A stretch of 64,000 nucleotides of DNA from an uncultured Chelatococcus sp. (GCA_937863995.1 CALMIK010000009.1:31577-95576), one strand, 5' to 3'; counted from the stretch's first letter, positions 40,801 through 58,498 are shown. The notes: generated by a model from the letters alone, not told the origin. A program made the numbers and translations.

Positions 40801-40848
40801 CGTTTTTCTCCCCCTCCACTATAGCCTCGGCGCGGCGTGGCCTGCCTC

Positions 40849-40863
40849 GCGACCTTGGTCGTA
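40849..40863. promoter_or_regulatory. PQQ-island operator motif, copy 1
   Basis: GCGACCTTGGTCGTA in the divergent intergenic region. Confidence 0.75.
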
Positions 40864-40958
40864 TGTCGCTCGGCGCGCCGCCAGCCTATCTTTTCGTCGG
40901 GGAATGCCGGCGAAAAAGAACCGGCTCCGGAAAGTACGGCCCCTGGAGGAAACAGCCG

Positions 40959-43064
40959 ATGGGGAGGAGACTGGCGCTCCGGCTGGCCGCAGCGCTGTTC
41001 GCGTTGTGCGCCGCCGCCTTGTGCGCGGTGGCGGCTCCGCTGCCGCGCGAGGCGCTGGCGCCGATGATCGTGCCGCCCTACGCGCTGGGGGAGCCGGTCA
41101 ACGACAAAGGCGTGTGGACGCTGCTCAACTCCGGCGGCGCCGAGGCCGGCTACGTGTTCGAGACCGGCCCGCTCGCGCCCCTGCCGGGCTTTTCCGGCGC
41201 GCCGATCGACATGCTGGTCATGCTCGATCTCGGCGGGCGCTTTCTCGACGTGCGGCTCATCGCGCACAACGAACCCATCTTCGTGTCCGGCCTGGGGGAA
41301 GCGCCGTTCCGCGCCTTTCTGGAGCAGTATCGGGGCCGTTCGATCCGCGAGCCGCTCGTCGTCGGCACCCCTTACGGCACGGGCGGGAGCGGGTCCGAAC
41401 AGGTGCATCTCGACGGCGTGACCAAGGCCACGGCGTCGGTGCGGATCGCGCACGATTCGATCATGGCCGCCGCCTTCACCGTCGCCCGCGAGAAGATGGC
41501 CGGCATCGGCAACGCAGCGCCCGTGCGTCCCGCTCCTTCAGTAGACGAAGCGCTCGACTGGCAGGCGCTGGTGGACCAGGGCCTTGCCCGCAACCTGCGC
41601 GTGACCAACCGCGAAGTCGACGCGGCCTTCGCCGGCACGATCTGGGCCGACGACGATCCCGAGGCGGCGTCCGACCCCGACGTGCTCTACCTCGATCTGT
41701 GGGCCGTGGACCTCGGCCCGCCCTCCGTCGCCCGCGCGGTGCTGGACGACGCCAGCCTCAAGGATCTGCGGCGCTTCCTCGATGTCGCGGGCGACGACGA
41801 GCCGCTGCTGCTCATCGAGGCCGGCCGCCATGGCCTCGTGTCCGACGAATTCGTGCGCAACACCGCGCCCGACCGCTTGCTGGCGGAACAGGGCGGACTG
41901 CCGCTCCCGCTGCGCGACGCCGATATGTCGGTCTCGACGCGCCCCGGCGTTCCCGAAGGCAAGGCGATGGTCCTGCGCATCGACAGGCGGCTTGGCTTCG
42001 ATCCCACGCACGACTGGACGCTGTTCGCCCTCGCCACCCGCGCCCATGGCATGCTGCAGCCCGAAAACGGCTCGAAGCGCTTTCCGCTCGTGCTGCGCGC
42101 CGACCCGCGCTTCTATACGCGCGTCGAGGTTGCCGAGGCGCTCCCGCCCTGGCGGGAGGCCATGCTGCACCGCAAGTACGATCTCGCCGCGCTCGCCCTC
42201 TTCCTGCTGCCGCTGCTCGCGGCGCTCGGTCCCGGCATGCGCCCTCTGGCGGGAAGCAAACATTTCACCCCTGCCCGGCTGGCGATCCTGGCTGTCATGA
42301 TCGGCCTTGTCGGCTGGTGGGGACAGGGTCAGCTCTCCATCGTCACTGTTCTTGCGACGCTGCGCGCGGCGGCGGGCAACGGCTCGCTCACCGTCCTGCT
42401 CTACGATCCGTTCTCGCTGGTGGTGTGGGCTGCGGCCCTCACCGGCTTCGTGCTGTGGGGCCGGGGCCTGTTCTGCGGCTGGCTGTGCCCCTTCGGCGCG
42501 ATGCAGGAATTCGCCCACCACGCCGGGCGTCTGCTGCGGCTGCCGGAATACAACCCCTCGCCGCGTTGGGACGCGCGGCTGAAAGCGGGCAAATACGTCG
42601 CGCTCGCGGGGCTGGTCGCCGTCGCCTTTCTGCTGCCCGACGAAGCGGAGCGGGTCGCCGAGATCGAGCCGTTCAAGACCGCCGTCACCACGGGCTTTCA
42701 GCGCGAATGGTATTATGTCGCTTACGCGGCGGGGTGGCTGGTGCTGGGCATGGTCACCTTCAAGGGGTTCTGCCGCTACGTCTGCCCGCTCGGCGCCCTG
42801 ATGGCGATAGGCGGCCTGCTGCGGCTGCGCAACTGGATACCGCGCCGGGCCGAATGCGGCTCGCCCTGCCAGCTATGCAAGGTGCGCTGCCGCTACGGCG
42901 CGATCGAGAAAACCGGAAAGATCGCCTATTCCGAATGTTTTCAATGCCTTGACTGCGTCACGATCCACGACGACACGGCGCAATGCGTTCCGCTGGTGCT
43001 GGCCGCGAAAAGGCGGCAAACGGGCGAGCGAGCAAGACGCGCGCCGCGGGAGGCCACGATATGA
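40959..43064 (+). CDS. NosR/NirI-like membrane protein with FMN-binding and 4Fe-4S domains
   Basis: GGAGG RBS; DGVTKATAS; CGWLCPFG; FCRYVCPLG; CGSPCQLCKVRC; CFQCLDC. Confidence 0.85.
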   Translation: MGRRLALRLAAALFALCAAALCAVAAPLPREALAPMIVPPYALGEPVNDKGVWTLLNSGGAEAGYVFETGPLAPLPGFSGAPIDMLVMLDLGGRFLDVRLIAHNEPIFVSGLGEAPFRAFLEQYRGRSIREPLVVGTPYGTGGSGSEQVHLDGVTKATASVRIAHDSIMAAAFTVAREKMAGIGNAAPVRPAPSVDEALDWQALVDQGLARNLRVTNREVDAAFAGTIWADDDPEAASDPDVLYLDLWAVDLGPPSVARAVLDDASLKDLRRFLDVAGDDEPLLLIEAGRHGLVSDEFVRNTAPDRLLAEQGGLPLPLRDADMSVSTRPGVPEGKAMVLRIDRRLGFDPTHDWTLFALATRAHGMLQPENGSKRFPLVLRADPRFYTRVEVAEALPPWREAMLHRKYDLAALALFLLPLLAALGPGMRPLAGSKHFTPARLAILAVMIGLVGWWGQGQLSIVTVLATLRAAAGNGSLTVLLYDPFSLVVWAAALTGFVLWGRGLFCGWLCPFGAMQEFAHHAGRLLRLPEYNPSPRWDARLKAGKYVALAGLVAVAFLLPDEAERVAEIEPFKTAVTTGFQREWYYVAYAAGWLVLGMVTFKGFCRYVCPLGALMAIGGLLRLRNWIPRRAECGSPCQLCKVRCRYGAIEKTGKIAYSECFQCLDCVTIHDDTAQCVPLVLAAKRRQTGERARRAPREATI

Positions 43065-43933
43065 ACCGCCGCCGTTTCATGACCATCTGCGCCGCCGTCG
43101 CGGCCTCGCCGGCGCTGGCGCAGACCCACAGCTGGCAGGCGCAGGCACTCGGCGGCACCGTCAGCATAGACCTGCGCGGCCCCCGCCCCCTCGCAGCAGA
43201 AACCGGGCGGGCGATCGCCGACGCCATCGAGGCGGTGGAGGCGGCTGCAAGCCTCTTCCGGTCGGATTCCGCCCTGTCGCGGCTCAACCGCGCCGGCCGC
43301 CTCGACCACCCGCCGCCCATGCTGCGCGATCTGCTGGCGCTGGCAAGCCGGATGCACGCGGCAACGGGCGGCGTGTTCGATGCCAGCGTCCAGCCGCTGT
43401 GGCAGGCGCTGGCGGAAGGAGCGGACCCCGCCGCGGCCCGCGCCCGCATCGGCTGGGAGCATGTCCGCGTCGGGACATCCGTCGTTCTGGGCAACGGACA
43501 GGCGCTGACGCTGAACGGCATCGCGCAGGGCTATGCCGCCGACAAGATCCGCGCGATGCTGCAAGGGGCGGGATACGAACAGGTGCTCGTGGACATGGGC
43601 GAGTACGCGGCGCTCTCCGGCCCGTTCCGCATCGGCGTCGAGGACCCTGAGCTTGGCCTGATCGCTATCCATGCGTTGCGCGGCGACGCCATAGCCACCT
43701 CCAGCCCCGGCGCGATGCGGCTTGGCGCGGGCGGCCACATTCTGGGCCCGGCAGGTCAGCAGCCTGTGTGGTCCACGGTGTCGGTGCAAGCCGCCAGCGC
43801 CGGCGTGGCCGATGGCCTCTCCACCGCGTTTTGCCTGATGGGCACAGCGGCGATCCGCACGGCGATGCGTATGCTGCCGGAAGTGTCGGCCGTCACGGCG
43901 GTGGATCTGAAAGGAGACGTGACGACGTTTTGA
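43061..43933 (+). CDS. apbE: FAD:protein FMN transferase with Tat signal
   Basis: Tat signal MNRRRFM; SLFRSDSALSRLN, LNGIAQGYAAD, DMGE, ATSS and ADGLSTA. Confidence 0.88.
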   Translation: MNRRRFMTICAAVAASPALAQTHSWQAQALGGTVSIDLRGPRPLAAETGRAIADAIEAVEAAASLFRSDSALSRLNRAGRLDHPPPMLRDLLALASRMHAATGGVFDASVQPLWQALAEGADPAAARARIGWEHVRVGTSVVLGNGQALTLNGIAQGYAADKIRAMLQGAGYEQVLVDMGEYAALSGPFRIGVEDPELGLIAIHALRGDAIATSSPGAMRLGAGGHILGPAGQQPVWSTVSVQAASAGVADGLSTAFCLMGTAAIRTAMRMLPEVSAVTAVDLKGDVTTF

Positions 43934-43965
43934 CCCGGGTCATCGGATTTCATCGCCGAAGAAGT

Positions 43966-44880
43966 TCAGCGGCTGGGCGCCTCGAAATCCAGCCCGTGTT
44001 CCTTGAATATCGCGGCGATGCGCCCGTCCGCCAGCGCAGCTTCGATCGCCGCATCGACGGCATACGCGAGGTCGCGGTGCTGGAAGTTGACGCCGACGCC
44101 GATCGTCCACCGCCCCCGGGCAAAGCCCGTGAACGGCGGCTCGTGCACCTTGATACCGGCTTCCGGGTGCAGGGCGGCGCCCGCCTGCAACTCGCCGCGC
44201 GGTCCCATCGCGGCTTTCGTCTCGCCTCCGGCCAGTGCGCCCACGGCGAGCAGCGTGCTGCGAAAGCGATGAATGTTGTCCACCGGGCCGATGAGCGATG
44301 TCAGGTAGAAATCCGAGATGGAATCGTTCTCCACCGCCACCGTGTCGAACCGGAAATAAGGCGCGGTCGGCCCCTTCTCGGGAAAATCCTTGGCCTTGTA
44401 GGCAATCGCGATGGCCTCGGTGGCGTACTGGCCGGTGAACACCACCTGCTCTATGCGGCAGGTCAGCAGGCTGTCGTAGGGCACGTGCAGCATCACGTCG
44501 CTGACGCGCCCGCCGATCACCGCGCCTTTCCAGACGTAATTGAACAGGTCGGCGTCGAGGTTGTCGCCCGCCTGCACCAGACGGAAGCGCGGCTCCACGC
44601 CGAGCTCGGCCGCGATGAGACGGCCGATGTCGATGTCGATCCCGCGCGCCTTGCCGCGCTCTTCCCACGACCACGGACGGAAATCCGCGTAGACGGCGAA
44701 TTCGATCCATCCGTCCTGCACGATACGGTCGAACGTGCGTCCCACATCCTGCGCGAACGTGTTCTGGGGTTTGGGCTGCGGCGGGAAATCCTCGCAGCGC
44801 GCCAGCGCGCCGTGAGGAAAGACAGCGCCGAGCCCCAGCGCCAGAACGGCGGCCGTGAGTGCGCGGGTGAGCCGAGACAT
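43966..44880 (-). CDS. Periplasmic binding protein of PQQ-ADH systems (MxaJ/XoxJ-like role)
   Basis: Family-3 SBP features (FAVYADFRPWS, GIDIDIGR); directly follows the cytochrome c550 gene. Confidence 0.75.
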   Translation of the reverse strand: MSRLTRALTAAVLALGLGAVFPHGALARCEDFPPQPKPQNTFAQDVGRTFDRIVQDGWIEFAVYADFRPWSWEERGKARGIDIDIGRLIAAELGVEPRFRLVQAGDNLDADLFNYVWKGAVIGGRVSDVMLHVPYDSLLTCRIEQVVFTGQYATEAIAIAYKAKDFPEKGPTAPYFRFDTVAVENDSISDFYLTSLIGPVDNIHRFRSTLLAVGALAGGETKAAMGPRGELQAGAALHPEAGIKVHEPPFTGFARGRWTIGVGVNFQHRDLAYAVDAAIEAALADGRIAAIFKEHGLDFEAPSR

Positions 44881-44883
44881 GCC

Positions 44884-45570
44884 TTACTCCGTTGCCGAAA
44901 GGCCGACCGTCAGGATTTCGCCCGCCCTCTTCCAGCTTTCAGGGGCGTCGCCCAGCGTGCGTGCGGCCTCGTAGGCCACGCTGTCCGCCACCGGCGCGCC
45001 GGAAGCCGTCTTCACCTGGCTTGCAATGCCCTCGAGCTCCTTCTTCAGCGCCGCCGGGTCCGCCACCTTGCCGGAAGCCAGCTCGTTGCGGATCGCATGC
45101 AGGCGGGCGGCGTGGTCGTCGAGAGCGCCGTCCTCGGGGCGGCTTTCGATGTAGGTTCGGATGGCCCATGCCGCCTTCTGGCCGAGAATGTCGCCGAAGG
45201 CCGGCATCTTCGTCACTCCGTCCTGCGTATAGCCGTGGCGGAAGCGGTCCACGTACCATTCGTCGCCATGCTCCTCCGCCTCGACGAAGCGCAGGTCGGG
45301 AGCGAGGCCGCCGGAGACAACGCCCAGTCCGTGGCAGCGGGCGCAGTTCTGGGTGTAGCCCGACGCGCCGATCTCGACCGCCTTGAGCCAGACATCGTGC
45401 CCGGCCTTGGCCTCGCGGTACGGGTTCTCGGTCAGCCATTCCTCGCCCACTTCGGGCAGGCCGTCTGTGTTCATCGGCTGCGGGGCCACGTCACCGTGAG
45501 CAACGGCCAGACTGACCGTCGCCACGAGCGCCAGCGCGGCAAGGCCGCCGCGAATGCGGGTCCTGGACAT
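44884..45570 (-). CDS. pedF: Cytochrome c550 (PedF/ExaB-type electron acceptor)
   Basis: Contains HGDVAPQPMNT, the heme motif CARCH, APDLR and the axial KMPAF. Confidence 0.85.
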   Translation of the reverse strand: MSRTRIRGGLAALALVATVSLAVAHGDVAPQPMNTDGLPEVGEEWLTENPYREAKAGHDVWLKAVEIGASGYTQNCARCHGLGVVSGGLAPDLRFVEAEEHGDEWYVDRFRHGYTQDGVTKMPAFGDILGQKAAWAIRTYIESRPEDGALDDHAARLHAIRNELASGKVADPAALKKELEGIASQVKTASGAPVADSVAYEAARTLGDAPESWKRAGEILTVGLSATE

Positions 45571-45654
45571 CTCTCCTCCTGCGTAATTTCTGGCTTACTT
45601 CGACGTTTTTCTACTTGTTCAAATGTGTAATGCCGCGCGGCTGGCGCGCGATAT

Positions 45655-45692
45655 GCGACCTTGGTCGCGGTCCGCATGGGACCTTGGTCGTA
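45655..45692. promoter_or_regulatory. PQQ-island operator motif, copies 2 and 3
   Basis: GCGACCTTGGTCGC (45655-45668) and GACCTTGGTCGTA (45680-45692). Confidence 0.78.
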
Positions 45693-45745
45693 TTTTCGCC
45701 AGCCGCGGTTCACGCCTACTCTTTCAGCAAGGGGAGGAAACAATC

Positions 45746-46969
45746 ATGCGTAAAGCGTGTGCGCGGCAGGGGGCGAGAGCTTCCCTGCTCATGATGGCGC
45801 GGGCCATGGCGATCGCCACGGCGACTGTCGGGCCGGGAGCCGCCACACTGGCGACCGCTGCCGAAATCGCCGTTCCCCTGACGTATCTCAGGCAGGAAGT
45901 CGAGGCGCCCCCCGTCCTCTCCAACCTCGACCCCATCCCGGAAGACCTGGGCGTCGCCGGCGCGGAGGTCGCGCTCGCGGACACGAAGACCACCGGCCGC
46001 TTCCTCGGCCATGCCTACAGCCTGGAGGTGGTTTCGGTGGAACCGGGCGGCGACCTCGCCGGCGCGGCGAAAGCGGCGCTCGCGGCCTCGCCCGCGTTGT
46101 TCGTCGATGCGCCGGCCGACGACATCCTCGCCATCGCCGACCTGCCCGAGGCCGCAGGCAAGCTCATCTTCAACGTGGCGTCGGGCGACCGCAAGCTGCG
46201 CGACGGCGACTGCCGCGCGAACGTGCTGCACACAATCCCCGAGGACGCCATGCGCGCCGACGCGTTGATGCAGGTGCTGAAAGCCCGCCGCTGGACACGC
46301 ACCGCGCTCATCGTGGGGCCGAAGCCGCAGGACGCGGCTTTCGCGGCGACATTGCGCGCCTCGGCGGCGAAGTTCGGCGTCACGATCGCGGCCGAGAAGG
46401 CGTGGACGTTCGACACCGACCTGCGCCGGGCGGCCGGTCAGGAAATTCCGCTGTTCACACAAGGTTTTCCGGATCACGACATCCTGCTCGTGGCGGACGA
46501 GGCCGACGATTTCGCCCGCTACGTGGAGCACAACACCTGGCTTCCCCGCCCGGTCGCGGGCTCGGACGGGTTGCGCGGCGAGGGCTGGGCGCCGGTGCTG
46601 GAACAATGGGCCGCCGTGCAGCTCCAGAACCGTTTCGAGAAAGCGGCGAAGCGCGAGATGCGCAGCCGCGACTACGCCGCCTGGACCGCGCTGCGCACCG
46701 TCGGCGAAGCGGTGACGCGCACGAACTCCGCCGATCCCGCGACATTGCGCGGCTTCATCCTGTCGGATGCCTTCGCGCTCGACGGCTTCAAGGGCCGCAC
46801 GCTGACCTACCGCCGGTGGAACGGGCAGTTACGCCAGCCGATGGCGGTGGTGAATGCCCGGGCGCTGGTCGAGCTCGCGCCGCTCGAGGGCTACCTGCAC
46901 CAGATCAACGAGATGGACACGCTCGGCCTCGACAAGCCGGAAAGTGCCTGCAAAGCCTTTGGAGGATGA
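45746..46969 (+). CDS. ABC substrate-binding protein of the PQQ-ADH system (LutA-like)
   Basis: GGAGG RBS; LR..DCRANVLHTIP, MRADALMQ, LQNRFEK and FKGRTLTYRRWNGQLRQP. Confidence 0.8.
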   Translation: MRKACARQGARASLLMMARAMAIATATVGPGAATLATAAEIAVPLTYLRQEVEAPPVLSNLDPIPEDLGVAGAEVALADTKTTGRFLGHAYSLEVVSVEPGGDLAGAAKAALAASPALFVDAPADDILAIADLPEAAGKLIFNVASGDRKLRDGDCRANVLHTIPEDAMRADALMQVLKARRWTRTALIVGPKPQDAAFAATLRASAAKFGVTIAAEKAWTFDTDLRRAAGQEIPLFTQGFPDHDILLVADEADDFARYVEHNTWLPRPVAGSDGLRGEGWAPVLEQWAAVQLQNRFEKAAKREMRSRDYAAWTALRTVGEAVTRTNSADPATLRGFILSDAFALDGFKGRTLTYRRWNGQLRQPMAVVNARALVELAPLEGYLHQINEMDTLGLDKPESACKAFGG

Positions 46970-46970
46970 G

Positions 46971-47939
46971 ATGAAAACCCGCACCGGCCTCGCCGCGTTC
47001 CTCATGATGACCGCATTGCCGCTGGCGGCTGGCGCGGGCGAAATCTGGGTCACCAACGAAAAAGACGACACGATATCGGTCATCGATATCGACAAGCTGG
47101 AAGTCGTGCGCACGATCAAGACGGGCGAGCGCCCGCGCGGCATCACCTTCAGCTCGGACCACAGCCGCGTATACATCTGCGCCTCCGATAGCGACACCGT
47201 GCAGGTGATGGATCCCGCCACCGGCCAGGTTCTCCACGACCTCCCCTCGGGCGAGGACCCGGAGCAGTTCGTGCTCTCGCCCGACGACCGGCACCTGTGG
47301 ATCGCCAACGAGGACAACGCCGTGACCACGGTCGTCGATGTCGAAACCCGGCAGGTGGTGGCGCAGATCGATGTCGGCATCGAGCCGGAGGGCATGGCGA
47401 TCTCGCCCGATGGCAAGATCGCGATCACCACCTCCGAAACCACGAACATGGCCCACTGGATCGACACCGCCACCCACAAGGTTTTCGCCAACACCCTCGT
47501 CGACAGCCGCCCCCGCCACGCGGAATTCACCAAGGGAGGCAGCGAACTCTGGGTGTCGTCGGAAATCGGCGGCACGGTGACCGTGTTCAACACGGCGGAC
47601 CAAAGCGAAAAGGGCAAAATCCGCTTTGCGATCAAGGGCGTTAACCCGGACCTCATCCAGCCGGTGGGTTTCGAGTTCACCCCCGACGAAAAAACCGCCT
47701 TCGTGGCGCTCGGCCCGTCCAACCACGTCGCCGTGGTCAACGCCGAGACGCTGGAGGTCGAGAGCTACATCCTCGTCGGCCGCCGGGTGTGGCACCTCGC
47801 CTTTTCGCCCGACCACAGCAAGCTGTTCACGACGAACGGCGTTTCCGGCGATGTCACGGTAATCGACGTCGCGACGCGCGAACCCGTGAAATCGATCAAG
47901 GTCGGCCGCTTCCCGTGGGGCGCGGCGACACGGCCCTGA
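46971..47939 (+). CDS. YVTN beta-propeller protein (PedA1/LutB-like)
   Basis: Signal peptide, WVTNEKDDTISVID and repeated GxxPxG blades. Confidence 0.85.
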   Translation: MKTRTGLAAFLMMTALPLAAGAGEIWVTNEKDDTISVIDIDKLEVVRTIKTGERPRGITFSSDHSRVYICASDSDTVQVMDPATGQVLHDLPSGEDPEQFVLSPDDRHLWIANEDNAVTTVVDVETRQVVAQIDVGIEPEGMAISPDGKIAITTSETTNMAHWIDTATHKVFANTLVDSRPRHAEFTKGGSELWVSSEIGGTVTVFNTADQSEKGKIRFAIKGVNPDLIQPVGFEFTPDEKTAFVALGPSNHVAVVNAETLEVESYILVGRRVWHLAFSPDHSKLFTTNGVSGDVTVIDVATREPVKSIKVGRFPWGAATRP

Positions 47940-48001
47940 CGCAAGCGTTCCATAAACAACGGCATCCCGTGCATGCCGGAATCACATAAACGGAGGACTG
48001 A

Positions 48002-48454
48002 ATGAAGCGCATGACCGTGATCGCGGCCCTGATGGCAGCAACCCTGCCTTTCGGCGCATCGGCGAACGACGACGACGACAAGGGCAAGCTGGGCCTCGCG
48101 GGCCTCTTGTCGTCGCAGAACCGCGAGGTGCTGCCGAAGCTCACGCTTTCCGCCGGAGCGCCTCTGGCCGCGGCCCCGCTGAAGCTGAAATCCGGCAAGT
48201 ACTACAAGCTGCAGATCCAGGCCGACGGCAGCCAGGAACTCGCGCTGGAAGGGCCGGGCTTCTTCCGCTCCATCTGGGTCAACGAAGTTGTCATCGAGGG
48301 CATCGAGATCCGGCCGCTGGGCATCGATTCGCTGGAGTTCGACGAGGCGGGTGAGGCCGAGATCAGCTTCATCGCCATCAAGCCCGGCAGCTACCACCTG
48401 AAGGTACCCGGCACGACGGGCGATTTGCAGACCGTCGCCATCACCATCGAGTAA
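48002..48454 (+). CDS. Small exported acidic protein of unknown function (possibly cupredoxin-like fold)
   Basis: Signal peptide ending ASA, mature N-terminus NDDDD, FIAIKPGSY, and no Cys. GGAGG RBS. Confidence 0.75.
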   Translation: MKRMTVIAALMAATLPFGASANDDDDKGKLGLAGLLSSQNREVLPKLTLSAGAPLAAAPLKLKSGKYYKLQIQADGSQELALEGPGFFRSIWVNEVVIEGIEIRPLGIDSLEFDEAGEAEISFIAIKPGSYHLKVPGTTGDLQTVAITIE

Positions 48455-48462
48455 GCGGCCGT

Positions 48463-49200
48463 ATGCGGACGGACAGCAGAGCAGAAGGCCTCGTCGCCGA
48501 AGGGCTGACGCACGACTGGGGCGGAAAGCGCGCCCTGGACGATGTTGGTTTTTCGATTGCGGCAGGCCGGTTTTGCGCTCTGCTCGGGCCGAACGGCGCG
48601 GGGAAATCCACGCTGTTCGGCCTGCTGACGCGTCTCTTTGTGCCACGCACCGGCCGCATCGCCATCGCCGGACACGACCTTGCCCGCGAGCCGCTCGCCG
48701 CGTTGTCGCGCATCGGCGTCGTGTTCCAGCAATCGACGCTCGATCTCGACCTGACGGTGCGGCGCAACCTGTTTTACTTCGCCGCACTGCACGGCCTTTC
48801 CGGGCGCGAGGCGGAGGCGCGCGTCATGGCGGCGCTGGAGCGGCTCGGCATGGCGGAAAGAGCGCACGAGCGCGCCGGCGCGCTCAACGGCGGCCATCGC
48901 CGGCGCATGGAAATCGCGCGCGCATTGATCCACCGCCCGTCCGTGCTGCTGCTCGACGAGCCGACGGTCGGCCTCGACGCCGCCTCGCGCCGCGCGATTA
49001 CCGACCACGTCCATGCCCTCGCCCGCGACGAAGGCCTCACCGTGCTGTGGGCCACGCATCTCGTGGACGAGATCGCTTCGGACGACCGGCTGGTGATCCT
49101 GCACCGGGGCCGCGTGCTTGCCGATGGCGAGGCGGGAGACATCGGCGGCGCGGACCTGACCACCCGCTTCATCGCCCTCACCGATGGAGCGCCGGCATGA
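48463..49200 (+). CDS. ABC ATP-binding protein of the PQQ-ADH system (PedB/LutE-like)
   Basis: Contains GPNGAGKST, LNGGHRRR, LLDEPTVGLD and WATH. Confidence 0.88.
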   Translation: MRTDSRAEGLVAEGLTHDWGGKRALDDVGFSIAAGRFCALLGPNGAGKSTLFGLLTRLFVPRTGRIAIAGHDLAREPLAALSRIGVVFQQSTLDLDLTVRRNLFYFAALHGLSGREAEARVMAALERLGMAERAHERAGALNGGHRRRMEIARALIHRPSVLLLDEPTVGLDAASRRAITDHVHALARDEGLTVLWATHLVDEIASDDRLVILHRGRVLADGEAGDIGGADLTTRFIALTDGAPA

Positions 49201-50027: not shown

Positions 50028-50054
50028 GGCTGACATCGGAACAAGGCACGGCGG

Positions 50055-50678
50055 CTACTCGGCGTCCTCAAGTCGCGCCGGACGGCCGGCGAGCCGCAGT
50101 TGCCGGGATGCCAGCCGCCGCGCCTCGGCGGCGACATGGGTGACGAGGATCGTGGCCACCGGCGTCGTCTGCCGCAGCCGCTCGAACAGCGCCATCATGG
50201 CTTCCGCCAGCTCCGGGTCGAGACTGACGAACGGTTCGTCCATCAACAGCAACTCCGGGCGCGACGCGAAGGCACGGGCCAGCGCCAGCCGGCGCTGCTG
50301 GCCGAGCGATAGCTGGGCGGGAAAACGCGCTTCGCAGCCCGCAAGCCCCACGTCGCCCAGCCAACGCCGCGCCTCGGGCGCGGATATGCCAGCGATGATC
50401 GACAGATTCTGCGCCGCGTCGCGCCAAGGCAGCAGCGCCGGTTCCTGAAACACCATGGCGATGCGCGCCGGGGCTTGGAGACGCCCGTGAAAGCGCCGTT
50501 CCAGCCCGGCGATAATCCGCAGCAGTGTGGTCTTGCCGACGCCCGATGGGCCCGTCAGCGCCAAGGTCTCGCCGGGCGCAAGCGTCAGGGAGAGAGGGCC
50601 GAGCACATCACCCGGCCCGCCGCGCTCCAGGTCGAGGCGCAGGCAGGGCTCAGATGCCGGAATCGACGAAAACGCCAT
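50055..50678 (-). CDS. NitT/TauT-family ABC ATP-binding protein
   Basis: Contains GPSGVGKTT, VFQEPALLPW, LSLGQQRR and LMDEPF. The start is uncertain. Confidence 0.85.
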   Translation of the reverse strand: MAFSSIPASEPCLRLDLERGGPGDVLGPLSLTLAPGETLALTGPSGVGKTTLLRIIAGLERRFHGRLQAPARIAMVFQEPALLPWRDAAQNLSIIAGISAPEARRWLGDVGLAGCEARFPAQLSLGQQRRLALARAFASRPELLLMDEPFVSLDPELAEAMMALFERLRQTTPVATILVTHVAAEARRLASRQLRLAGRPARLEDAE

Positions 50679-51621
50679 CGGGCAGTTCCTTGAGGTCACC
50701 TGCGAGATCCGCGCCGCCGAGTTCGACCATCAGCCCCAGCAGCCGCTGCGCCGCCGCCCTGTCGACGGGCCCGGGCTTGGGTATCCCGTCCAGAAAGCCC
50801 GCCTTCAGGGCCGCGAACTCCGCGTCGGACGCCGCGTTCATCAGCGGCCGGATGCGGTCCCACGCCGCCGGATCGGAGGCGAGCTTGTCCTTGGCGGCGC
50901 GAGAGGCCGCAGCAAGCCCGGCGGCGAGGCCGGGATGCGCGCGCAATACCTCGCCGCGCACCACGTAGCCGAGAAGCGGCGTGTCGGGATCGAGGCCAAG
51001 CGCCGTCGCCGCCGCGGAAACGGTGATGAGCGGGCGCATGCCCGCCGCCTGCATCCTGGCGCCGAAATGCCAAAAATTGACGGCGGCGGCGAATTCGCCG
51101 CCGAGCGCCGCCTTGAAGATGAGCGGCGGCGCGCCGAAGACCTGCTCCGTCTGGCCGGCCAGATCGAAGCCCTCTGCCTGCCTGGCGTAGGCGCGCAGGA
51201 TCAGCCAGCTCTTGTCCACCGGGCCGCCGGCGACCCCGATCCGTTGTCCGCGCAGATCGGCAAGCGCTTTCGCGCCGCTCCCGCCCGGCACCAACAGCGC
51301 GCCGACGGCGCGGGAATATGGGATGAACACGACATCGCGGCCGGCGGCGCGCTCACGCGCGACCCAGAGCCAGTCGGAGACGATCACGTCCACCTCCCCG
51401 GCCATCAGCGCGATCTGCGCGGCCGGCGTTCCCGCCATGTCCGTGACGGCGAGCGAAAAGCCGTTGGCCTTGTCGAAGCCGTTGTGGCGGATGGTGTCGA
51501 CTTCCCAGTTGACGGTGCCCGTAAGCTGAAGCGCCGCCCGCAGGCGCGGATGCTCCGCCAGCGCCGCCGAACAGGATAACGCGACCGCGACCGCCGCCCC
51601 GACAAGCGCCCGGATGTTCAT
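50650..51621 (-). CDS. NMT1/TauA-like substrate-binding protein, PqqT-like (candidate PQQ binder)
   Basis: Signal peptide; [22 protein letters not shown] and PYSRAVG; divergent from the PQQ-ADH gene. Confidence 0.75.
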
Positions 51622-51672
51622 GCCAATTCCTCCTTTTTTCCTGTATCCTATTGGCAATACGGCAGCGGGATA

Positions 51673-51728
51673 TACGACCAAGGTCCCGTATCGGATGCCG
51701 GCCCGCGGGCAATGTTACGACCAAGGTG
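51673..51728. promoter_or_regulatory. PQQ-island operator motif, copies 4 and 5
   Basis: TACGACCAAGGTC (51673-51685) and TACGACCAAGGTG (51716-51728), 43 bp apart. Confidence 0.78.
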
Positions 51729-51827
51729 CAATATACCGCCCCGTTGCACGCACCAATAATGACGGAAATGGCTGGACGACCTGCGGCAAAGCTCCGTGAT
51801 CCGCGCCATGATCCGAGGGAGGATATA

Positions 51828-53594
51828 ATGAAACGGTTCTTGCTGGCCGCTGTCACGGCCATGGCCTGCGTCGGAATGGCCCAGGCACAGGTGACTGAAG
51901 AAGATCTGGCGAACGACGCCGAAACCGTCAACAACGTGCTCACGAACGGCCTCGGCCGGGGGTTGCAGCGCTACTCGCCCCTGCAGACGCTCAACAAGGC
52001 CAACGTGAAGGGCCTCGTCCCGGCATGGGCCTTCAGCCTCGGCGGCGAAAAGCAGCGCGGGCAGGAAAGCCAGGCGATCGTCTACGACGGCGTGATGTAT
52101 ATCACCGGTTCCTACAGCCGCATCTTCGCCATCGACGTCGCCACCGGGCGCAAGCTGTGGCAGTACGACGCTCGCCTGCCCGAGGGCATCCTGCCCTGCT
52201 GCGACGTCGTCAACCGCGGCGCGGCGATCTTCGGCGACAACGTCTATTTCGGCACGCTCGACGCGCGTCTCATCGCGCTCAACCGCAAGACCGGCCGCGT
52301 GGTCTGGAACAAGAAGCTCGCCGAGTACAAGGAAGGCTATTCGTACACCGCCGCGCCGCTCATCGTGAAGGGCCTCGTCATCACCGGCAATTCCGGCGGC
52401 GAGTTCGGCGTGGTCGGCGAGGTGCAGGCTCGCGATGCGGCCACGGGCGAGCTGGTGTGGTCGCGCCCCACCATCGAAGGCCACAAGGGCACCTTCAAGG
52501 GTAAGGAATCGAGCACCACCGGAACCCTCAACGCCACCTGGCCGGGCGATGCGTGGAAGACCGGCGGCGGCGCGACGTGGCTCGGCGGCTCCTATGACGC
52601 CGACACCGACACGCTCGTCTTCGGCGCCGGCAACCCCTCGCCGTGGAACAGCCATCTGCGCGGCGCCGGCAAGCCCATGGAAGGCAACAAGGGCGACAAC
52701 CTCTACGCCGCCAGCCGTCTCGGCATCGACCCCGCGACCGGCGAGATCAAGTGGCACTTCCAGACCACCCCGCGCGAGGGCTGGGATTTCGACGGCGTGA
52801 ACGAGGTCGTGCCCTTCGTCGCGGCGGACGGGACGAAGCGCTACGCCACGGCCGACCGCAACGGCTTTTTCTACATCCTGAACCGCGAGGACGGAAAATA
52901 CGTCAATGCCTGGCCGTTCGTGAAGAACATCAACTGGGCCAAGGGCATCGACAAGGACGGCCGCCCGATCTTCAACGAAGAGAACCGCCCCGGCGATCCC
53001 GCCGCCGCGGCAGACGGCGCCAAGGGCCAGCAGATCTTCTCCGTGCCGTCCTTCCTCGGCGGCAAGAACTGGATGCCCATGGCCTATAGCCAGAAGACCG
53101 GGCTGTTCTACGTGCCTTCCAACGAATGGGGCATGGACATCTGGAACGAGCCGATCAACTTCAAGAAGGGCGCTGCCTTCCTCGGCGCGGGCTTCACCAT
53201 CAAGCCCCTGTTCGAGGACTACATCGGCAGCCTGAAGGCGATCGACCCGAACACCGGCGACATCAAGTGGGAATACAAGAACGGCGCGCCGCTGTGGGCG
53301 GGCGTGATGACCACCGCCGGCGGACTGGTCTTCACCGGCAATCCGGAAGGCGAGTTCCTCGCGCTCGATGACGAAACCGGCGAAGTGCTGTGGAAATTCC
53401 AGACCGGGTCGGGCATCGTGGGCCAGCCGGTGACGTGGGAACAGGACGGCGAGCAGTACGTCTCCGTCATCTCCGGCTGGGGCGGCGCGGTGCCGCTGTG
53501 GGGCGGCGAAGTGGCGAAGAAGGTCAACTACCTCAACCAGGGAGGCATGGTCTGGACCTTCCGCCTGCCGAAGGAACTGGCCAAGGCCAACTGA
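51828..53594 (+). CDS. pedH: PQQ-dependent alcohol dehydrogenase, lanthanide type (PedH/ExaF-like)
   Basis: Signal peptide ending AQA, vicinal [16 protein letters not shown], the active-site WDFDGVNE (D-x-D) motif, and GGKNW. Confidence 0.88.
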
Positions 53595-53600
53595 TGCCTG

Positions 53601-53637
53601 ACGAAGGAGGCGGGCCGTCCTGCCCCGCCTCCTTCGT
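53601..53637 (+). terminator. Hairpin after the ADH gene
   Basis: 14-bp stem ACGAAGGAGGCGGG/CCCGCCTCCTTCGT. Confidence 0.65.
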
Positions 53638-53672
53638 TCCGATTTCGGGCCAGGATCGAGCGGAGTATCGAC

Positions 53673-54395
53673 ATGTCCGGCTCTTTCGATTTCTTCCGGG
53701 ATTCCCGCATTCCCCTCGCGGCCGAGCCGGCGCCGGGCGCCGTCGACATGCGCTCGATGCTGATCGTCGACGATCACCCGCTGTTTTGCGACGCGCTCGC
53801 CATGACACTGACACGCCTCGTCGGCATCGAGACGGTGGAAGCCGTCGGCACGCTCGAGATGGCGCTCATGCGGCTTGAAGCCGGCCCGACGCCCGACGTC
53901 GTGGTGCTCGATCTCAACCTGCCCGACGTGAGCGGCCTCGACGGCGTGGTGCGCCTGCGCAAGGCGATCCCCTCGACGCCGATCGTCGTGGTGTCGTCGC
54001 TCGACGAACTGCGCGTGACGCGGGCGGCGCTGCGGGCGGGCGTCAACGCCTTCGTGCCCAAGCATGCCGAGCGCGAGGAATTCCGCGCCGCCTTCGCGGC
54101 CATCAGCCGGGGCGAGGTGTATGCCGGACGCATGGCGCTGGAGGTCACGGCGCCCTCCCCCTCCGAGCACGTCATCGCGCGGCTGGCGCTGCTCACGCGG
54201 CAGCAGGCCAAGATACTGGAGATGGTCTGCGAGGGACTGATGAACAAGCAGATCGCCTACGAGCTCTCCATCGCCGAAACCACGGTGAAAGCGCATCTGA
54301 CGGCAATCATGCGCAAGCTCGGCGTCCAGACGCGCATGCAGGCCGTGCTGTTCGTGAAAGAGGCCAGTTTTTCCGCCCTCACGCCGGAAGGCTAA
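53673..54395 (+). CDS. NarL/LuxR-family response regulator (ErbR/PedR1/FlhR-like)
   Basis: Contains IVDDHPL, VLDLNLPD and the HTH NKQIAYELSIAETTVKAH. Confidence 0.92.
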   Translation: MSGSFDFFRDSRIPLAAEPAPGAVDMRSMLIVDDHPLFCDALAMTLTRLVGIETVEAVGTLEMALMRLEAGPTPDVVVLDLNLPDVSGLDGVVRLRKAIPSTPIVVVSSLDELRVTRAALRAGVNAFVPKHAEREEFRAAFAAISRGEVYAGRMALEVTAPSPSEHVIARLALLTRQQAKILEMVCEGLMNKQIAYELSIAETTVKAHLTAIMRKLGVQTRMQAVLFVKEASFSALTPEG

Positions 54396-54558
54396 GCCTT
54401 CCGCCGGGCGCAGCCTGCGCCGACATCGCCGACAACCGGCTGAACGCAACCTATTGGCATTCCTCGCCGCCCGTGCGACGTTCGGGCAATGCCCACCGGC
54501 GACCGGCCAAAGAACCGGCGTATCGTGACGACCGGCGGCTTTGCAGGGAAAACGCTCG

Positions 54559-55734
54559 ATGAAACAGGCCGGACGGCCTACGGATGCTCACGCATCGATT
54601 ATCCGCAGGGCCTGCGTGCCGGCGGCAAACCTGCGCGCCGCCGAGGACCTTGCCGGGATGCTCGGGCCGGGGCCTTTCGCGCTCGTCATCGTGTTCACCT
54701 CTCCCGACGCCGATCTGGCGCGGCTGTCGGCGCAGGCGGCGCAAGTCTTCGCCGGGGCGAGGCTCATCGGCTGCACCACGGCGGGAGAGATTTCCGACGC
54801 CGGCTACGACGACAACACGATCGTCGCGGTGGCGCTGCCCGCATCGCATTTCGGCGCGGAAACCCTCACCATTCCCGACCTGTCGCGGCTTGAGCCGCGC
54901 GACCTCACGACGGCCGTGGCGCGGGCGCGCGAGGCGCTGGCACGCGATTATCCCACTCTCCCGCACGCGTTCGCCATGCTGCTCGTCGATGGGCTTTCGG
55001 TGAAGGAGGACGAGCTCGCATCGGCGCTCTCGGCAGGCCTCGGGTCAATGCCGCTGCTGGGCGGCTCCGCCGGCGACGGCACACGCTTCCAGCAGACGTT
55101 CGTCATCGACGGCGACCGGCTGCTGCGGAACGCGGCGGTGCTGGCTTTCGTGCGCAGCGCGTGCCCGATGCGGATATTCAACCTCGACCACCTGATACCG
55201 ACCAAGAAGCGCATGGTGGTGACGCTGGCGGAGCCGCGCCGGCGCATCGTGCGCCGGATCAACGACGAACCGGCGGCGCAGGAATATGCGCGCCTGCTGG
55301 GCAAGGACCCGCTACAACTCACGCCCTTCAACTTCGCCGCGCATCCGCTGGCCGTGCGCATGGGCGAGCGCCACCACGTGCGCGCGGTGCAGCAGGTGAC
55401 GCCGGATGGCGATCTGGTGTTCTTCTCCGCCATCGACGAGGGCGTCGTGCTGACGCTCGCCGAGCCGCAAGACATCGCCCAGCATCTCGAACACGAGCTC
55501 GACCGGCTGAGTGAACCGGCGCAACCCGTTGCGGTCGTCGCCTTCGATTGCATCCTGCGCCGGCTCGAGGCGCAGGAAAGGCAGGTCACGGGCCGCGTGT
55601 CGGACATCCTGCGCAGGCATGGCGTGACGGGTTTCTCGACCTACGGCGAGCAGTTCGGCGCGCTGCACGTCAACCACACGATGACCGGGATCGCGTTCTA
55701 CGCACCCGGCACCGCGCTGCCCGAGGACGGCTGA
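54559..55734 (+). CDS. FIST N/C-domain sensory protein
   Basis: Contains GCTTAGEI, LVDGLS, GGSAGD, AFDCILR and GFSTYGEQ. Confidence 0.9.
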   Translation: MKQAGRPTDAHASIIRRACVPAANLRAAEDLAGMLGPGPFALVIVFTSPDADLARLSAQAAQVFAGARLIGCTTAGEISDAGYDDNTIVAVALPASHFGAETLTIPDLSRLEPRDLTTAVARAREALARDYPTLPHAFAMLLVDGLSVKEDELASALSAGLGSMPLLGGSAGDGTRFQQTFVIDGDRLLRNAAVLAFVRSACPMRIFNLDHLIPTKKRMVVTLAEPRRRIVRRINDEPAAQEYARLLGKDPLQLTPFNFAAHPLAVRMGERHHVRAVQQVTPDGDLVFFSAIDEGVVLTLAEPQDIAQHLEHELDRLSEPAQPVAVVAFDCILRRLEAQERQVTGRVSDILRRHGVTGFSTYGEQFGALHVNHTMTGIAFYAPGTALPEDG

Positions 55735-57965
55735 TGGCGCGCATTTCCGAATGGCTGATCGACCCCGACGACACGCCCGAGCGCACGATCGAAAAGCTCC
55801 TGACCATCACCGAGGTGCTGATGCGCCAGGTCGAGCAGGCTTCGGGCGAGCGCGGCGCGGCCTATGAACAGTTTCGCCGCGCGGCGTTGCTGGAAGACCG
55901 CGTGCGCCAGCGAACGCTCGACCTGGAATACGCCCTGCGCCTGCTGGGCGAGACCAATTCCCGCCTCACCACCGCGAAGCGCACGGCGGAACGGGCGCAG
56001 CGCGATCTCGCCAACGCCATCGAGGCCGTGCAGGAAGGCTTCGCGCTGTTCGACGAGACGGACACGCTGGTGCTGCACAACTCCCGCTTCTGCCGTGACT
56101 TGCCGGATGTCCGCCGTGGCCTGCGCGCGGGCATGGCGCTGTCCGAATACGTGGATCTCGTCGGCTATTCCGCCTCGCTCTCCCTGCCCGCCGACCAGAC
56201 ACGCGAGGAGTGGGTGAAGGAGCGGATGCAGCGCCACCACGACCGGCAGGTGTTCAACGTGGCCCTCACCGGCGACCGCTGGCTGCAGGTCAGCTCCCAG
56301 CGCATCAACGGCGGCGGCACGGTGATGCTCCAGACCGACGTCACGGACATCATCCGGCTGGAACGGATCGAACGCGGCAAGATGCTCGACAATCAGGCGC
56401 GGATCATCCGCGCCACGCTCGAACACATCAGCCAGGGCGTCTGCATCGTCGATGTCAACCTGCGTCTCGTGGGCTGGAACAAGCGGCTCGCCCAGCTTCT
56501 GGACATGCCCCCCGCCTCGCTGCGCCAGGGCGCGGGGTTCGACAGCCTTCTGCGCCACTTCGGCAACGACAGCATCTACCAGGAACATGTGTCGTTCGAG
56601 GCGCTCGCCATCTGGGCGCGTCAGGCAAGGCCGCGTCCGCCGCAGTCGTTCGAGATACGCCGCGCGTCGGGCGTGATACTCGACGGATACGCGCGGGAAA
56701 CGCCCGAGGGCGGATTCGTGATTTCCTTCAGCGACGTCACGCGCGAGCGGCTGGCGGTGCAGGCCATGCTGCGCGCCAACGCCTCGCTGGAGGCGCGGGT
56801 GGCCGCGCGGACGCTCGACCTGGAGGCGGCGCTGGAAGACGCTGAACGGGCCAATGCCTCGCGCGTGCGCTTCGTGGCGGCGGCGAGCCACGATCTGCTG
56901 CAGCCGCTCTCGGCAGCCAAGCTTTTCATCGCCTCCGCTCGCGACGACGACCCCAGCCCGCTGGTGCGCTCGACGCTGGGAAAGGCGCTCAACGCGTTGG
57001 TCAGCGTGGAGGGAATCCTGCACGCGCTGCTCGACATCTCCCGGCTGGAGGTAGGCGAATCCGCCGTCGAGATCGTGCCGGTGCGGCTCGTGCCCCTGCT
57101 CGCCCAGCTCACGGACGAGTTCGCGCCTGTCGCCGCCGGAAAGGGACTGCGGCTGACGATCGTGCCAAGCCGGCTCACCGTGGCGAGCGACCCGGCCTAC
57201 CTGCGGCGCATCCTGCAAAACCTGATCGGCAACGCCATCCGCTACACGCGCACGGGGCGGGTGCTGGTCGGCGCGCGGCGCTCGGGCGGGAAAATCCGCA
57301 TCGAAGTGCATGACACCGGCCCCGGCATCGCCCCCGAGGACCAGCAGCTCATCTTCCGCGAGTTCCACCGGCTCAACGGCTCGGCGTCCGCGTCGGAGGG
57401 CATGGGCCTCGGCCTCGCCATCGTGCAGCGGGCGTGCGCGCTGCTCAACCACAGGCTGTCGCTAACGTCGGAACCGGGGCGCGGCACGTCGTTCTCGGTC
57501 GAGATGGCGTTGTCGGCGCCCGATTCCATGCTGTCGTGCCCGGGCCTGATCGTCACCGGCGCCGATGAACCGCGCGACGGCAGCAACCGGATCGCGCTGC
57601 TTGTCGGCAGCGCTCCCGACCTGCGGCGGGAGCTGGGCATGCAGCTTGAGCGGCGCAACATCACCGCGTGGGAGGTCGGCAACGGCGATGAGGCGCTGGC
57701 GCTGCTGGAGGAAATCGGCATCGTGCCCGACTTCTACCTCGTGGATCAAGACCTTGACGCAGGCGCGGGCTGCATCGAGACGGTGCGCGCGCTCCACGAA
57801 GGCTGGGGCGAGCGGCCGACACGCATCCTGACCGTGGAGCCGGCCTGCGGATCGTTGGCGGAGAGCGGAATCGAGTGCCTGCGCAAGCCCGTGGAGGACG
57901 CGGCGCTGGATGCCTTCATCGCCGGCGCGGCCTCGTTCTCTCCACCGCTTTCCCCCGCGCGCTGA
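55734..57965 (+). CDS. PAS-fold hybrid sensor histidine kinase (FlhS/ErcS/PedS1-like)
   Basis: H-box [10 protein letters not shown]-box NLIGNA, DTGPGI, GMGLGL and a C-terminal receiver domain. Confidence 0.9.
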
Positions 57966-57966
57966 C

Positions 57967-57992
57967 TACGACCAAATCGCGACCAAGGTCGC
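57967..57992. promoter_or_regulatory. PQQ-island operator motif, copies 6 (degenerate) and 7
   Basis: TACGACCAAATCG followed by GCGACCAAGGTCGC (57979-57992), upstream of pseudoazurin. Confidence 0.75.
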
Positions 57993-58051
57993 ATTGTTCG
58001 CCGGCCCGTTTCCATGTCCTCTGTAACCAACGAATAATCACGGAGGAACGG

Positions 58052-58498
58052 ATGCGCGCAAGTTTGGCAATCGCCATCAACGCCGGGCTCGTAACGGCAT
58101 GGCTGGCGACCGGAGCAGCGCTGGCGGCCGAGCACGAAGTCAAGATGCTCAACCAGGGCCCGAACGGGACCATGGAATTCCAGCCTGCCGCGATCAAGGC
58201 CGCACCGGGCGATACCGTCCGCTTCATTCCCACCGACAAGAGCCATAACGTCGAGGGAATCAAGGGGATGCTGCCGGAGGGCGTCGCGCCTTTCAAAAGC
58301 AAGATCAACGAGGAATTCGTGCTGACGCTGACCGAGCCCGGCATCTACGGTGTGAAATGCACGCCGCATTTCGCCATGGGAATGGTCGCGGTCATCCAGG
58401 CCGGAGACGCGCCGGCCAATCTCGAGGCGGCAAAGGCTGTGAAGCTGCCGAAAAAGGCCGCGGAACGGATAGAGGCGGCATTCGCGGAACTGCCGTGA
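58052..58498 (+). CDS. Pseudoazurin (type I copper protein)
   Basis: Contains VKMLN, the Cu ligands SHN and CTPH..M, and a GGAGG RBS. Start set at MRASL. Confidence 0.92.

Follow-up and report, generated by a model that had tools for sequence, protein, structure and literature searches.

A 16-bp dyad as the probable operator of a NarL/LuxR-type regulator in a predicted alcohol-oxidation island of an uncultured Chelatococcus

A 16-bp dyad recurs at the promoters of the island

A 64,000-nt stretch of DNA from an uncultured Chelatococcus sp. (GCA_937863995.1, CALMIK010000009.1:31577-95576, corresponding to C9:31577-95576 of a genome with 99 contigs, 3.53 Mb and 66% GC), referred to here as the window, contains a 17-kb island predicted to encode periplasmic alcohol oxidation of the ped/exa/xox-like kind, whose intergenic regions repeatedly carry the inverted repeat TACGACC-WW-GGTCGTA. 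Judged by its sequence, position and conservation, this box is probably the operator of the NarL/LuxR-type response regulator encoded at 53673 within the same island. An earlier reading of the sequence alone (the initial annotation) had proposed the 10-mer GACCWWGGTC, within the pattern (TAC)GACC-WW-GGTC(G), as a candidate regulon motif. That core is real, but the element is longer, as alignment of the copies in a weight matrix gave a 16-bp dyad with strongly conserved outer T and A (matrix consensus ATATTCGACCTTGGTCGTATTT).

All five exact 10-mers reported in the initial annotation were recovered (40851, 45657, 45680, 51676 and 57981), and none of 100 dinucleotide-preserving shuffles of the window reached this number; the shuffle mean of 0.17 lies close to the roughly 0.1 chance copies per window estimated before. 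The entire genome holds 17 such 10-mers, five of them inside the island. On a gene map drawn from GC content at third codon positions (GC3) and start-codon context, together with Pfam and NCBIfam scans, every motif copy proved to be intergenic, as had been claimed, and each region has a copy near a start codon, although the range is about 50-70 nt rather than 50-60 nt (Table 1). Two near-copies had also been put forward, with different outcomes. The copy at 51719 (GACCAAGGTG, a 9/10 match) is a true site and is kept upstream of the dehydrogenase gene in other genera, whereas the copy at 57970 amounts to only a half-site, TACGACC (57967-57973), which adjoins box 6 and falls below the matrix threshold. 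The block formed by box 6 and this half-site is invariant in two Pseudochelatococcus relatives (L001 and L002).

The weight matrix, seeded on the window sites, was scanned over the whole genome, where the six island boxes took the six top scores (21.5-27.2 bits) and were separated by a clear gap from the next match at 19 bits. Because the strong matches all lie in the island and lower matches adjoin unrelated genes or other palindromes, the regulon in this organism appears, on the basis of these scans, to be confined to the island. A genome-wide search for TACGAC-N4-GTCGTA with up to two mismatches returned 28 matches and no second motif cluster. As for a possible acetate regulon, no box was found upstream of acs (C45), and the region upstream of an acs paralogue (C65) gave merely an 8.6-bit match.

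The box is conserved at orthologous promoters

Searching for the regulator protein in one genome per species yielded 80 alphaproteobacterial loci (1.44 Mb), with regulator identities of 84-85% in Pseudochelatococcus, ~74% in Rhizobiaceae and 56-69% in Paracoccaceae and Roseobacteraceae. The gene order dehydrogenase-regulator-nosP-kinase is widely syntenic among these loci, as are the ped genes. Together they hold 64 exact cores, located at syntenic promoters, and 158 matrix matches of at least 18 bits, none of which falls within the mapped orthologous genes (41% of bases); column-shuffled matrices yielded 0-11 matches in the same loci. The proposal of a regulon motif is thereby strengthened: the box is conserved at orthologous promoters in Chelatococcaceae, Rhizobiaceae and Paracoccaceae/Roseobacteraceae, with a fixed spacing to a -10-like hexamer, and neither abundance in coding DNA nor a lack of conservation, both named in the initial annotation as grounds for discarding the motif, was observed.

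Within the related loci, the box typically stands ~85-110 nt before the dehydrogenase start and ~130 nt before pseudoazurin, with another before nosR (the latter also kept in L018, L020, L023, L032, L041 and L045). A pair of boxes 23-24 bp apart occupies the region between pedF and pedA1 in nearly all loci that have these genes. Several Rhizobiaceae carry a further box before pqqA (between pazS and pqqA/B), and many Paracoccaceae carry one before the regulator gene. When 8-mers were counted without any matrix, TACGACCA/ACCAAGGT ranked first upstream of dehydrogenase (26/32), pazS (14/15) and nosR (6/6), with TACGACCA being the most widespread 8-mer upstream of dehydrogenase orthologues and ACCAAGGT/AGGTCGCA accounting for the 14 regions upstream of pazS. 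An alignment of the sequence upstream of dehydrogenase from eight genera contained the box as its sole conserved block, followed at a fixed distance by AATAAT, GATGAT or ATACT. Both the exact-core counts and the 8-mer ranking are independent of the matrix.

Spacing to -10-like hexamers suggests a class II activator position

When all sites were pooled, 76 of the 325 non-identical flanks had a TAnnnT hexamer starting at a distance of 30.5, 31.5 or 32.5 nt from the centre of the box, while other offsets gave counts of 0-3 nearly everywhere, apart from a smaller peak of 9 at 55.5 nt that derives from the upstream box of tandem pairs. The -10-like hexamers assigned in the window to the nosR, permease, pedA1, NMT1 operon and dehydrogenase promoters are listed with their distances in Table 1. 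The centre of box 2, the upstream partner of the tandem pair, is 55.5 nt from the pedA1 hexamer TACTCT and thus coincides with the secondary peak. A hexamer spacing of 30.5-32.5 nt would place the box centre near -43, over the -35 region, at most promoters. This position is the classic class II activator arrangement, and good -35 hexamers are absent at the promoters with a -43 box. The pseudoazurin promoter has a different layout, with a sigma-70-like TTTCCA-18-AATAAT (58009-58038) that puts box 6 near -60, not -43. A pattern scan for sigma-54 promoters (TGGYAY-N5-YTGC) gave no match in seven intergenic regions.

The 53673 regulator is the best candidate for binding the box

NarL recognizes 7-2-7 sites, in which two inverted heptamers beginning with TAC and lying 2 bp apart are read by a GerE-domain dimer, the heptamer being TACYYMT. 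The box has the same arrangement of inverted TAC heptamers with a 2-bp gap, and the 53673 protein combines a receiver domain (REC) with GerE, so the earlier suggestion that the dyad symmetry and TACGACC half-site suit a NarL/LuxR dimer agrees with the 7-2-7 layout. The system is nevertheless distinct from NarL in that the heptamer is TACGACC, not TACYYMT, and the regulon and sensor are different ones.

The initial annotation had also named the 53673 regulator as the likely binder, and it remains the best candidate: it has the REC and GerE domains, it is the only DNA-binding protein retained in the syntenic cluster, and the box travels with its module. The NosP-like gene always follows the regulator gene in related loci. 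Apart from the island regulator, the genome encodes just one full REC+GerE regulator, an orphan on contig C87. The box stays with the regulator-nosP-kinase module also where the dehydrogenase is elsewhere: among 48 loci that have no close orthologue of the dehydrogenase, 37 still carry it. In loci of Rhodobacter, Gemmobacter, Cereibacter and Tabrizicola (L029, L036, L038, L048, L049, L056, L062 and L069; ~14100-18600 in each), it is found just after the kinase gene and precedes a coxG-coxS-coxL-coxM-like molybdenum hydroxylase operon that replaces the pyrroloquinoline quinone (PQQ) dehydrogenase genes, and in these Rhodobacter-type loci the regulator-nosP-kinase cassette appears to drive a different oxidoreductase. 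The entire cluster with its boxes is also present in G024, a genome of another family whose regulator is 48-52% identical. When 300 genomes were sampled evenly across the class, an orthologue occurred in only two other genomes; as this is too few for a class-wide correlation of presence and absence, same-family genomes were used as negatives.

Several observations weigh against assigning the box to the 53673 regulator. Since the loci were collected via the regulator and also served to refine the matrix, co-occurrence is partly built in and its independence overstated. No box precedes the regulator gene in the window. Boxes 2 and 6 are off the -43 geometry, and the -10 elements were assigned by pattern and not from mapped transcription starts. 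In addition, the orphan regulator (C87:15508-16176) scores higher on the ErdR model than the island regulator does (225.7 vs 158.9 bits), groups with ErdR in the tree and has a near-identical recognition helix (SEATVKAHVSAIL), as close to that of ErdR as is the helix of the island regulator.

This better fit and the shared helix make the C87 protein a genuine rival. The boxes could be bound mainly by this ErdR/CrbR-like regulator, with the island as a branch of an ErdR-type carbon-source regulon, or both regulators could share the sites, and it is of note here that the box is indistinguishable by sequence from published ACTU sites (described below) and that ErdR stands upstream of ethanol oxidation in Pseudomonas. 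However, acs/actP should be among the targets if the regulon were ErdR-like (PMC5715377), and in this genome the box is missing upstream of acs and outside the island. Same-family genomes with a C87-type regulator, among which G008 and G020 are confirmed to be without the island regulator, hold 0-2 scattered ACCWWGGTCGTA matches and no box clusters, whereas G000 has four ACCWWGGTCGTA matches, all of them in the island. The box moreover stays with the module of the island regulator in different genera and gene contexts, and binding mainly or jointly by the C87 protein therefore seems unlikely to us.

A 16-bp palindrome can also be read by any dimeric helix-turn-helix (HTH) protein, and the dyad could in principle be the operator of an unrelated factor encoded elsewhere, such as a global repressor or another HTH dimer, with the LuxR-type regulator merely co-located. 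Its sequence and position, however, match a motif that is experimentally tied to CrbR, a related regulator, and the cluster has no other conserved gene for a DNA-binding protein. A constant -43 geometry combined with poor -35 elements speaks for an activator and not for a repressor, and the Pseudomonas variant of the dyad described below is found together with the AgmR-NosP module, the two genomes without that module having no copy. An unrelated factor is for these reasons improbable. It is very hard to believe that these short inverted repeats in intergenic DNA are no protein sites at all (mobile or repetitive extragenic palindromic (REP)-like remnants, RNA hairpins or chance), because chance is excluded by the shuffle and genome matrix statistics, arms only 2 nt apart preclude a stable hairpin loop, the repeats are conserved across families despite diverged flanks and at a fixed distance to -10 elements, and they are not spread through the rest of the genome in the manner of a dispersed repeat family.

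The box resembles the ACTU motif of CrbR/ErdR

The initial annotation gave no published site for this regulator group, but the ACTU motif of CrbR/ErdR matches the box closely (e.g., GTCGACCAAGGTCGTGT and CGCTACCATGGTCGAAT; PMC5715377). Sepulveda & Lupas (2017, PMC5715377) defined ACTU in Gammaproteobacteria in front of a set of genes that includes acs and actP, where it occupies positions -52 to -36 directly upstream of a sigma-70 (RpoD-type) promoter; promoter mutation and heterologous expression in E. coli demonstrated that it is needed for CrbR (ErdR)-dependent activation (PMC5715377). The published sites further include TAATCCCTTGGTCGTAG and TACGACTAAAGTCTAAA. Both elements are the same imperfect inverted repeat, TACGAC-N4-GTCGTA, with the same arms and spacing and often an ACCWWGGT centre, and the ACTU position of -52 to -36 compares with ~-43 inferred for the island box. 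The regulators belong to the same family and have near-identical recognition helices.

The two systems differ in other respects. The ACC-WW-GGT centre is far more strictly kept in the island box than in ACTU. The regulon of CrbR/ErdR comprises acs/actP, whereas here it would cover periplasmic alcohol oxidation and metal/PQQ logistics, with acs lacking a box. CrbR/ErdR is partnered by the SLC5-STAC kinase CrbS, in contrast to the soluble NosP/NahK-type kinase found here (PAS_7, with a FIST partner). Furthermore, the 53673 protein is not an orthologue of ErdR, which was its best NCBIfam match (158.9 bits against a cut-off of 390, followed by NarL), as the proteins are 41-45% identical and fall into separate clades. 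The box is thus best described as an ACTU-type operator of a distinct, NosP/NahK-linked branch of the regulator group that has an alcohol-oxidation instead of an acetate regulon. An ACTU-like box of a NarL/LuxR-family regulator is already known; the predicted regulon and the proposed sensor partner are new and extend ACTU from gammaproteobacterial acetate genes to alphaproteobacterial alcohol oxidation.

Identity of the 53673 regulator to Pseudomonas AgmR-like proteins is 37-38%, and to PedR2/EraR-like proteins 30-32%. Its recognition helix, AETTVKAHLTAIMRKL, is near-identical to those of ErdR and AgmR: the alphaproteobacterial island regulators and AgmR share ETTVKAH, ErdR has EATVKAH, and the corresponding stretch in PedR2/EraR is KTVSNHLTLL. 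Maximum-likelihood analysis gave three separate clades, one of the alphaproteobacterial regulators, one of ErdR together with the C87 protein and one of AgmR, without a resolved order of branching among them. The proteins returned by a homologue search with the 53673 regulator were all alphaproteobacterial and bore either no name or a generic one, and none of them was a characterised homologue.

By genomic context, the 53673 regulator is the counterpart of AgmR/ErbR/PedR1, the gene of which adjoins nosP and nahK (ercS', pedS1) in the Pseudomonas ped/exa cluster and the product of which is an activator of the ped core genes and of pqq (PMC12997753). Both clusters have a LuxR-type regulator beside nosP and a NahK-type kinase, along with a PQQ dehydrogenase, cytochrome c550, pedA1A2BC and a pqq cluster; the genetically defined AgmR targets (ped core and pqq) correspond to box-bearing genes here, and the ETTVKAH helix is identical. 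Orthology does not hold, though, as identity is below that to ErdR, the clades are separate and the gene order differs, with nosP-kinase-regulator adjoining pedCBA2A1 in Pseudomonas-like genomes and dehydrogenase-regulator-FIST(NosP-like)-NahK-like kinase in the window. A 2026 review of the ped cluster gives no AgmR binding site (PMC12997753), and where ErbR is listed in the supplements of an HT-SELEX study, the protein appears without a motif (PMC8041468). Supplementary file 9 of the same study gives the motif TTCCCGGGAA for EraR/PedR2. EraR/ExaE/PedR2 is likewise of the LuxR type and regulates genes for quinoprotein ethanol dehydrogenase in that Pseudomonas cluster, but its motif is unrelated to the island box, in keeping with its lower identity and different helix. 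No second, EraR-type regulator was found in the alphaproteobacterial clusters when the syntenic loci were compared.

A variant dyad accompanies the AgmR module in Pseudomonas-like genomes

The comparison covered ten genomes of family f46, presumably Pseudomonas-like, that encode a true ErdR; eight of them have a NosP homologue. Their ped clusters contain a variant dyad, CTACTACYTTGGTAC, that has the ACC-WW-GGT core of the island box and TAC in place of the GAC arms. It precedes pedA1 by ~200-280 nt and pedF by ~180-200 nt, and also occurs in the interval between pedC and the gene for the AgmR-like protein. Taking in further genomes of this kind, the dyad was noted in loci L094-L105 and L109-L112, from G095, G087, G235, G083, G286, G147 and G223. 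All 10 exact matches found genome-wide in the ten genomes are at such ped places, with a chance expectation of ~0.3 by a rough base-composition estimate, and the two ErdR-positive genomes without NosP have no match genome-wide. The same CTACTACYTTGGTAC pair flanks pedA1A2BC in G286 and G147, which lay outside the derivation of the pattern, and the dyad also occurs upstream of pedF in G223 and at a second G087 locus. From this small number of genomes, CTACTACYTTGGTAC may be considered a candidate AgmR/PedR1 operator, and if true it would provide AgmR/ErbR/PedR1, which acts as master activator of the ped/exa cluster, with a first cis-element.

A broader proposal, tentative and a little short of an even chance in our estimation, is that the regulator-NosP-NahK module and its ACC-WW-GGT dyad form a portable cassette of Alpha- and Gammaproteobacteria, with TACGACCWWGGTCGTA and CTACTACYTTGGTAC as operators of one lineage and with rewired outputs. 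These outputs may be lanthanide/PQQ alcohol oxidation, NosR-ApbE and pseudoazurin in Rhizobiales, and the CoxG-S-L-M-like molybdenum hydroxylase in Rhodobacterales.

Proposed mechanism of regulation

Binding by the 53673 protein, activation and the route of phosphorylation are all inferred, and the following model is offered on that footing. Phosphorylation of the 53673 regulator would be controlled by the NosP-like FIST protein together with the soluble PAS kinase of the NahK/ErcS' type, possibly through a phosphorelay, given the degenerate receiver of the kinase. Each box would then be occupied by a dimer of the regulator, with one GerE helix-turn-helix per heptamer. At most promoters, which are of the sigma-70 kind with a TAnnnT -10 element and a poor -35 and have the box centre ~43 nt upstream of the start, this would amount to class II activation. 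In the pedF/pedA1 region, the second box 23 bp upstream could contribute cooperative binding, and the pseudoazurin promoter would be served by a box near -60. The predicted, island-confined regulon would consist of the dehydrogenase, cytochrome c550 and its XoxJ-like partner, the PedA1A2BC-like transporter, the NMT1-type ABC (ATP-binding cassette) system, NosR/ApbE and pseudoazurin.

For an uncharacterised, widespread alphaproteobacterial regulator encoded beside NosP/NahK-type sensors, the analysis thus provides a cis-element that can be tested and a predicted regulon. One predicted switch for the alcohol dehydrogenase, the cytochrome, the Ped/Lut-like metal transporter, NosR/ApbE and pseudoazurin would suggest which accessory proteins serve the enzyme. 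The boxes also permit regulon prediction in many genomes and offer parts for alcohol-inducible promoters.

Genes of the island and additional observations

Table 1 Boxes, promoter hexamers and genes of the island (window coordinates)
Feature	Position	Strand	Location or relation	Evidence
Box 1 CGCGACCTTGGTCGTA	40848-40863		divergent region between ABC permease start (40800, minus) and nosR-like start of nosR-apbE (40959, plus); core 40851	exact core, 21.5 bits
Box 2 TGCGACCTTGGTCGCG	45654-45669		upstream partner of tandem pair, divergent region between pedF start (45570, minus) and pedA1 start (45746); core 45657	exact core, 23.4 bits
Box 3 TGGGACCTTGGTCGTA	45677-45692		same region as box 2, promoter-proximal for pedA1A2-(150 aa)-pedB-pedC; core 45680	27.2 bits, top match of the genome
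Box 4 TACGACCAAGGTCCCG	51673-51688		between NMT1-type binding-protein start (51621, minus) and dehydrogenase start (51828), for the minus-strand NMT1-type binding protein/ABC ATPase operon; core 51676	exact core, 26.5 bits
Box 5 TACGACCAAGGTGCAA	51716-51731		same region as box 4, dehydrogenase promoter box; core 51719	23.1 bits
Box 6 CGCGACCAAGGTCGCA	57978-57993		between kinase stop (57965) and pseudoazurin start (58052), upstream of pseudoazurin; core 57981	exact core, 24.4 bits
Permease promoter, TATAGT	40818-40823	-	32.5 nt from box 1 centre	
nosR promoter, TATCTT	40887-40892	+	31.5 nt from box 1 centre	
pedA1 promoter, TACTCT	45717-45722		32.5 nt from box 3 centre	
NMT1 operon promoter, TAGGAT	51645-51650	-	30.5 nt from box 4 centre	
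Dehydrogenase promoter, AATAAT	51755-51760		31.5 nt from box 5 centre	
NosR-like flavin mononucleotide (FMN)/Fe-S membrane protein and ApbE flavin transferase	40959-43933	+		NosR model 432 bits (below cut-off), Fer4_5, ApbE
SBP_bac_3 (XoxJ/PedG-like) gene	43966-44880	-	downstream of pedF, same predicted operon	SBP_bac_3
Cytochrome c550 PedF	44884-45570	-		TIGR04494, 188 bits, above cut-off
pedA1 (PQQ_ABC_bind), pedA2 (beta-propeller), 150-aa protein, pedB (ABC ATPase), pedC-like permease	45746-50143	+		
NMT1-type binding protein and ABC ATPase	50055-51621	-		
PQQ alcohol dehydrogenase, methanol/ethanol family, lanthanide type (D-x-D)	51828-53594	+		TIGR03075, 761.9 bits
Response regulator	53673-54395	+		Response_reg (72.4 bits) and GerE (71.2 bits), both above cut-off
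FIST/NosP-like sensor protein	54541-55734	+		FIST_N and FIST_C; NosP model 366.8 bits vs cut-off 450
Soluble PAS_7 histidine kinase, NahK/ErcS' type	55548-57965	+		PAS_7, HisKA, HATPase_c; NahK/ErcS' and near_NosP_CTERM models
Pseudoazurin (pazS)	58052-58498	+		TIGR02375, 170.8 bits, above cut-off
pqqA, unannotated small open reading frame (ORF), MAWNTPFIVEICVGLEVNAYFPADIEN	58660-58740		followed by pqqBCDE	

The lanthanide-type signature of the dehydrogenase is W-D-F-D-G at residue 319. Directly 3' of its stop codon, a GC-rich hairpin (GAAGGAGGCGGG...CCCGCCTCCTTC) with a T-rich tail (53603-53640) is likely to act as a terminator between the dehydrogenase and regulator genes. The start codon of the kinase is uncertain, its ORF overlaps the end of nosP, and its degenerate C-terminal receiver gave a weak Response_reg match (19.2 bits). 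Models for PedA1 and PedA2 scored above cut-off (TIGR03863, 469 bits; TIGR03866, 517 bits), and together with ABC_tran and synteny they identify the PedA1A2BC operon as a Ped/Lut-like transporter, probably for lanthanide. The pqqA gene has a sigma-70-like promoter, TTTACA-17-TATACT (58570-58598), and no box precedes it in the window, unlike in several Rhizobiaceae loci.

Lower-scoring genome-wide matches were considered as extra regulon sites and rejected. The match at C85:29499, by TetR-family and phenylacetate-CoA-ligase-like genes, has a different core (CACATATGTCG) and was unconvincing, as were C88:28259, which adjoins an FNR/FixK-type box upstream of ccoN, C24:24401 upstream of proS, and C66:63522 upstream of a small cytochrome-oxidase-subunit-IV-like ORF and pntA. 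The match at C35:1268 belongs to a separate perfect palindrome, TTAGACCAATGGTCTAA (C35:1262-1290), between divergent TetR-like and small membrane-protein genes; it is probably the operator of the adjacent TetR-like repressor and unrelated to the island box, although the CC-WW-GG centre is common to both. A weak in-gene match, CTGTTCGCCATAGGTCGAAAAG, recurs inside nosP at 12-18 bits in many loci (54541-55734 in the window; L004:11831 and L014:11845) and was left uncounted as a conserved coding stretch that most likely reflects protein conservation.

The orphan regulator on C87 has no kinase alongside and lies near guaB and a gene for a large Ala/Arg-rich protein. In Paracoccus (L016, L019, L021, L024 and L026), a regulator orthologue of 62-69% identity is encoded downstream of a 50-53% identical PQQ dehydrogenase; a box stands ~155 nt upstream of the PedF-like cytochrome gene in these loci and, in L016 and L019, also upstream of the regulator. 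The Paracoccus orthologue with 65% identity may correspond to the characterised FlhR or MoxX, whose papers give no binding motif. The NitT/TauT-type ABC system of the window is split, with the permease (40000-40800) and the NMT1 protein and ATPase (50055-51621) 10 kb apart; its parts are contiguous in the Rhodobacter capsulatus loci L027 and L030, while here each half adjoins a box.

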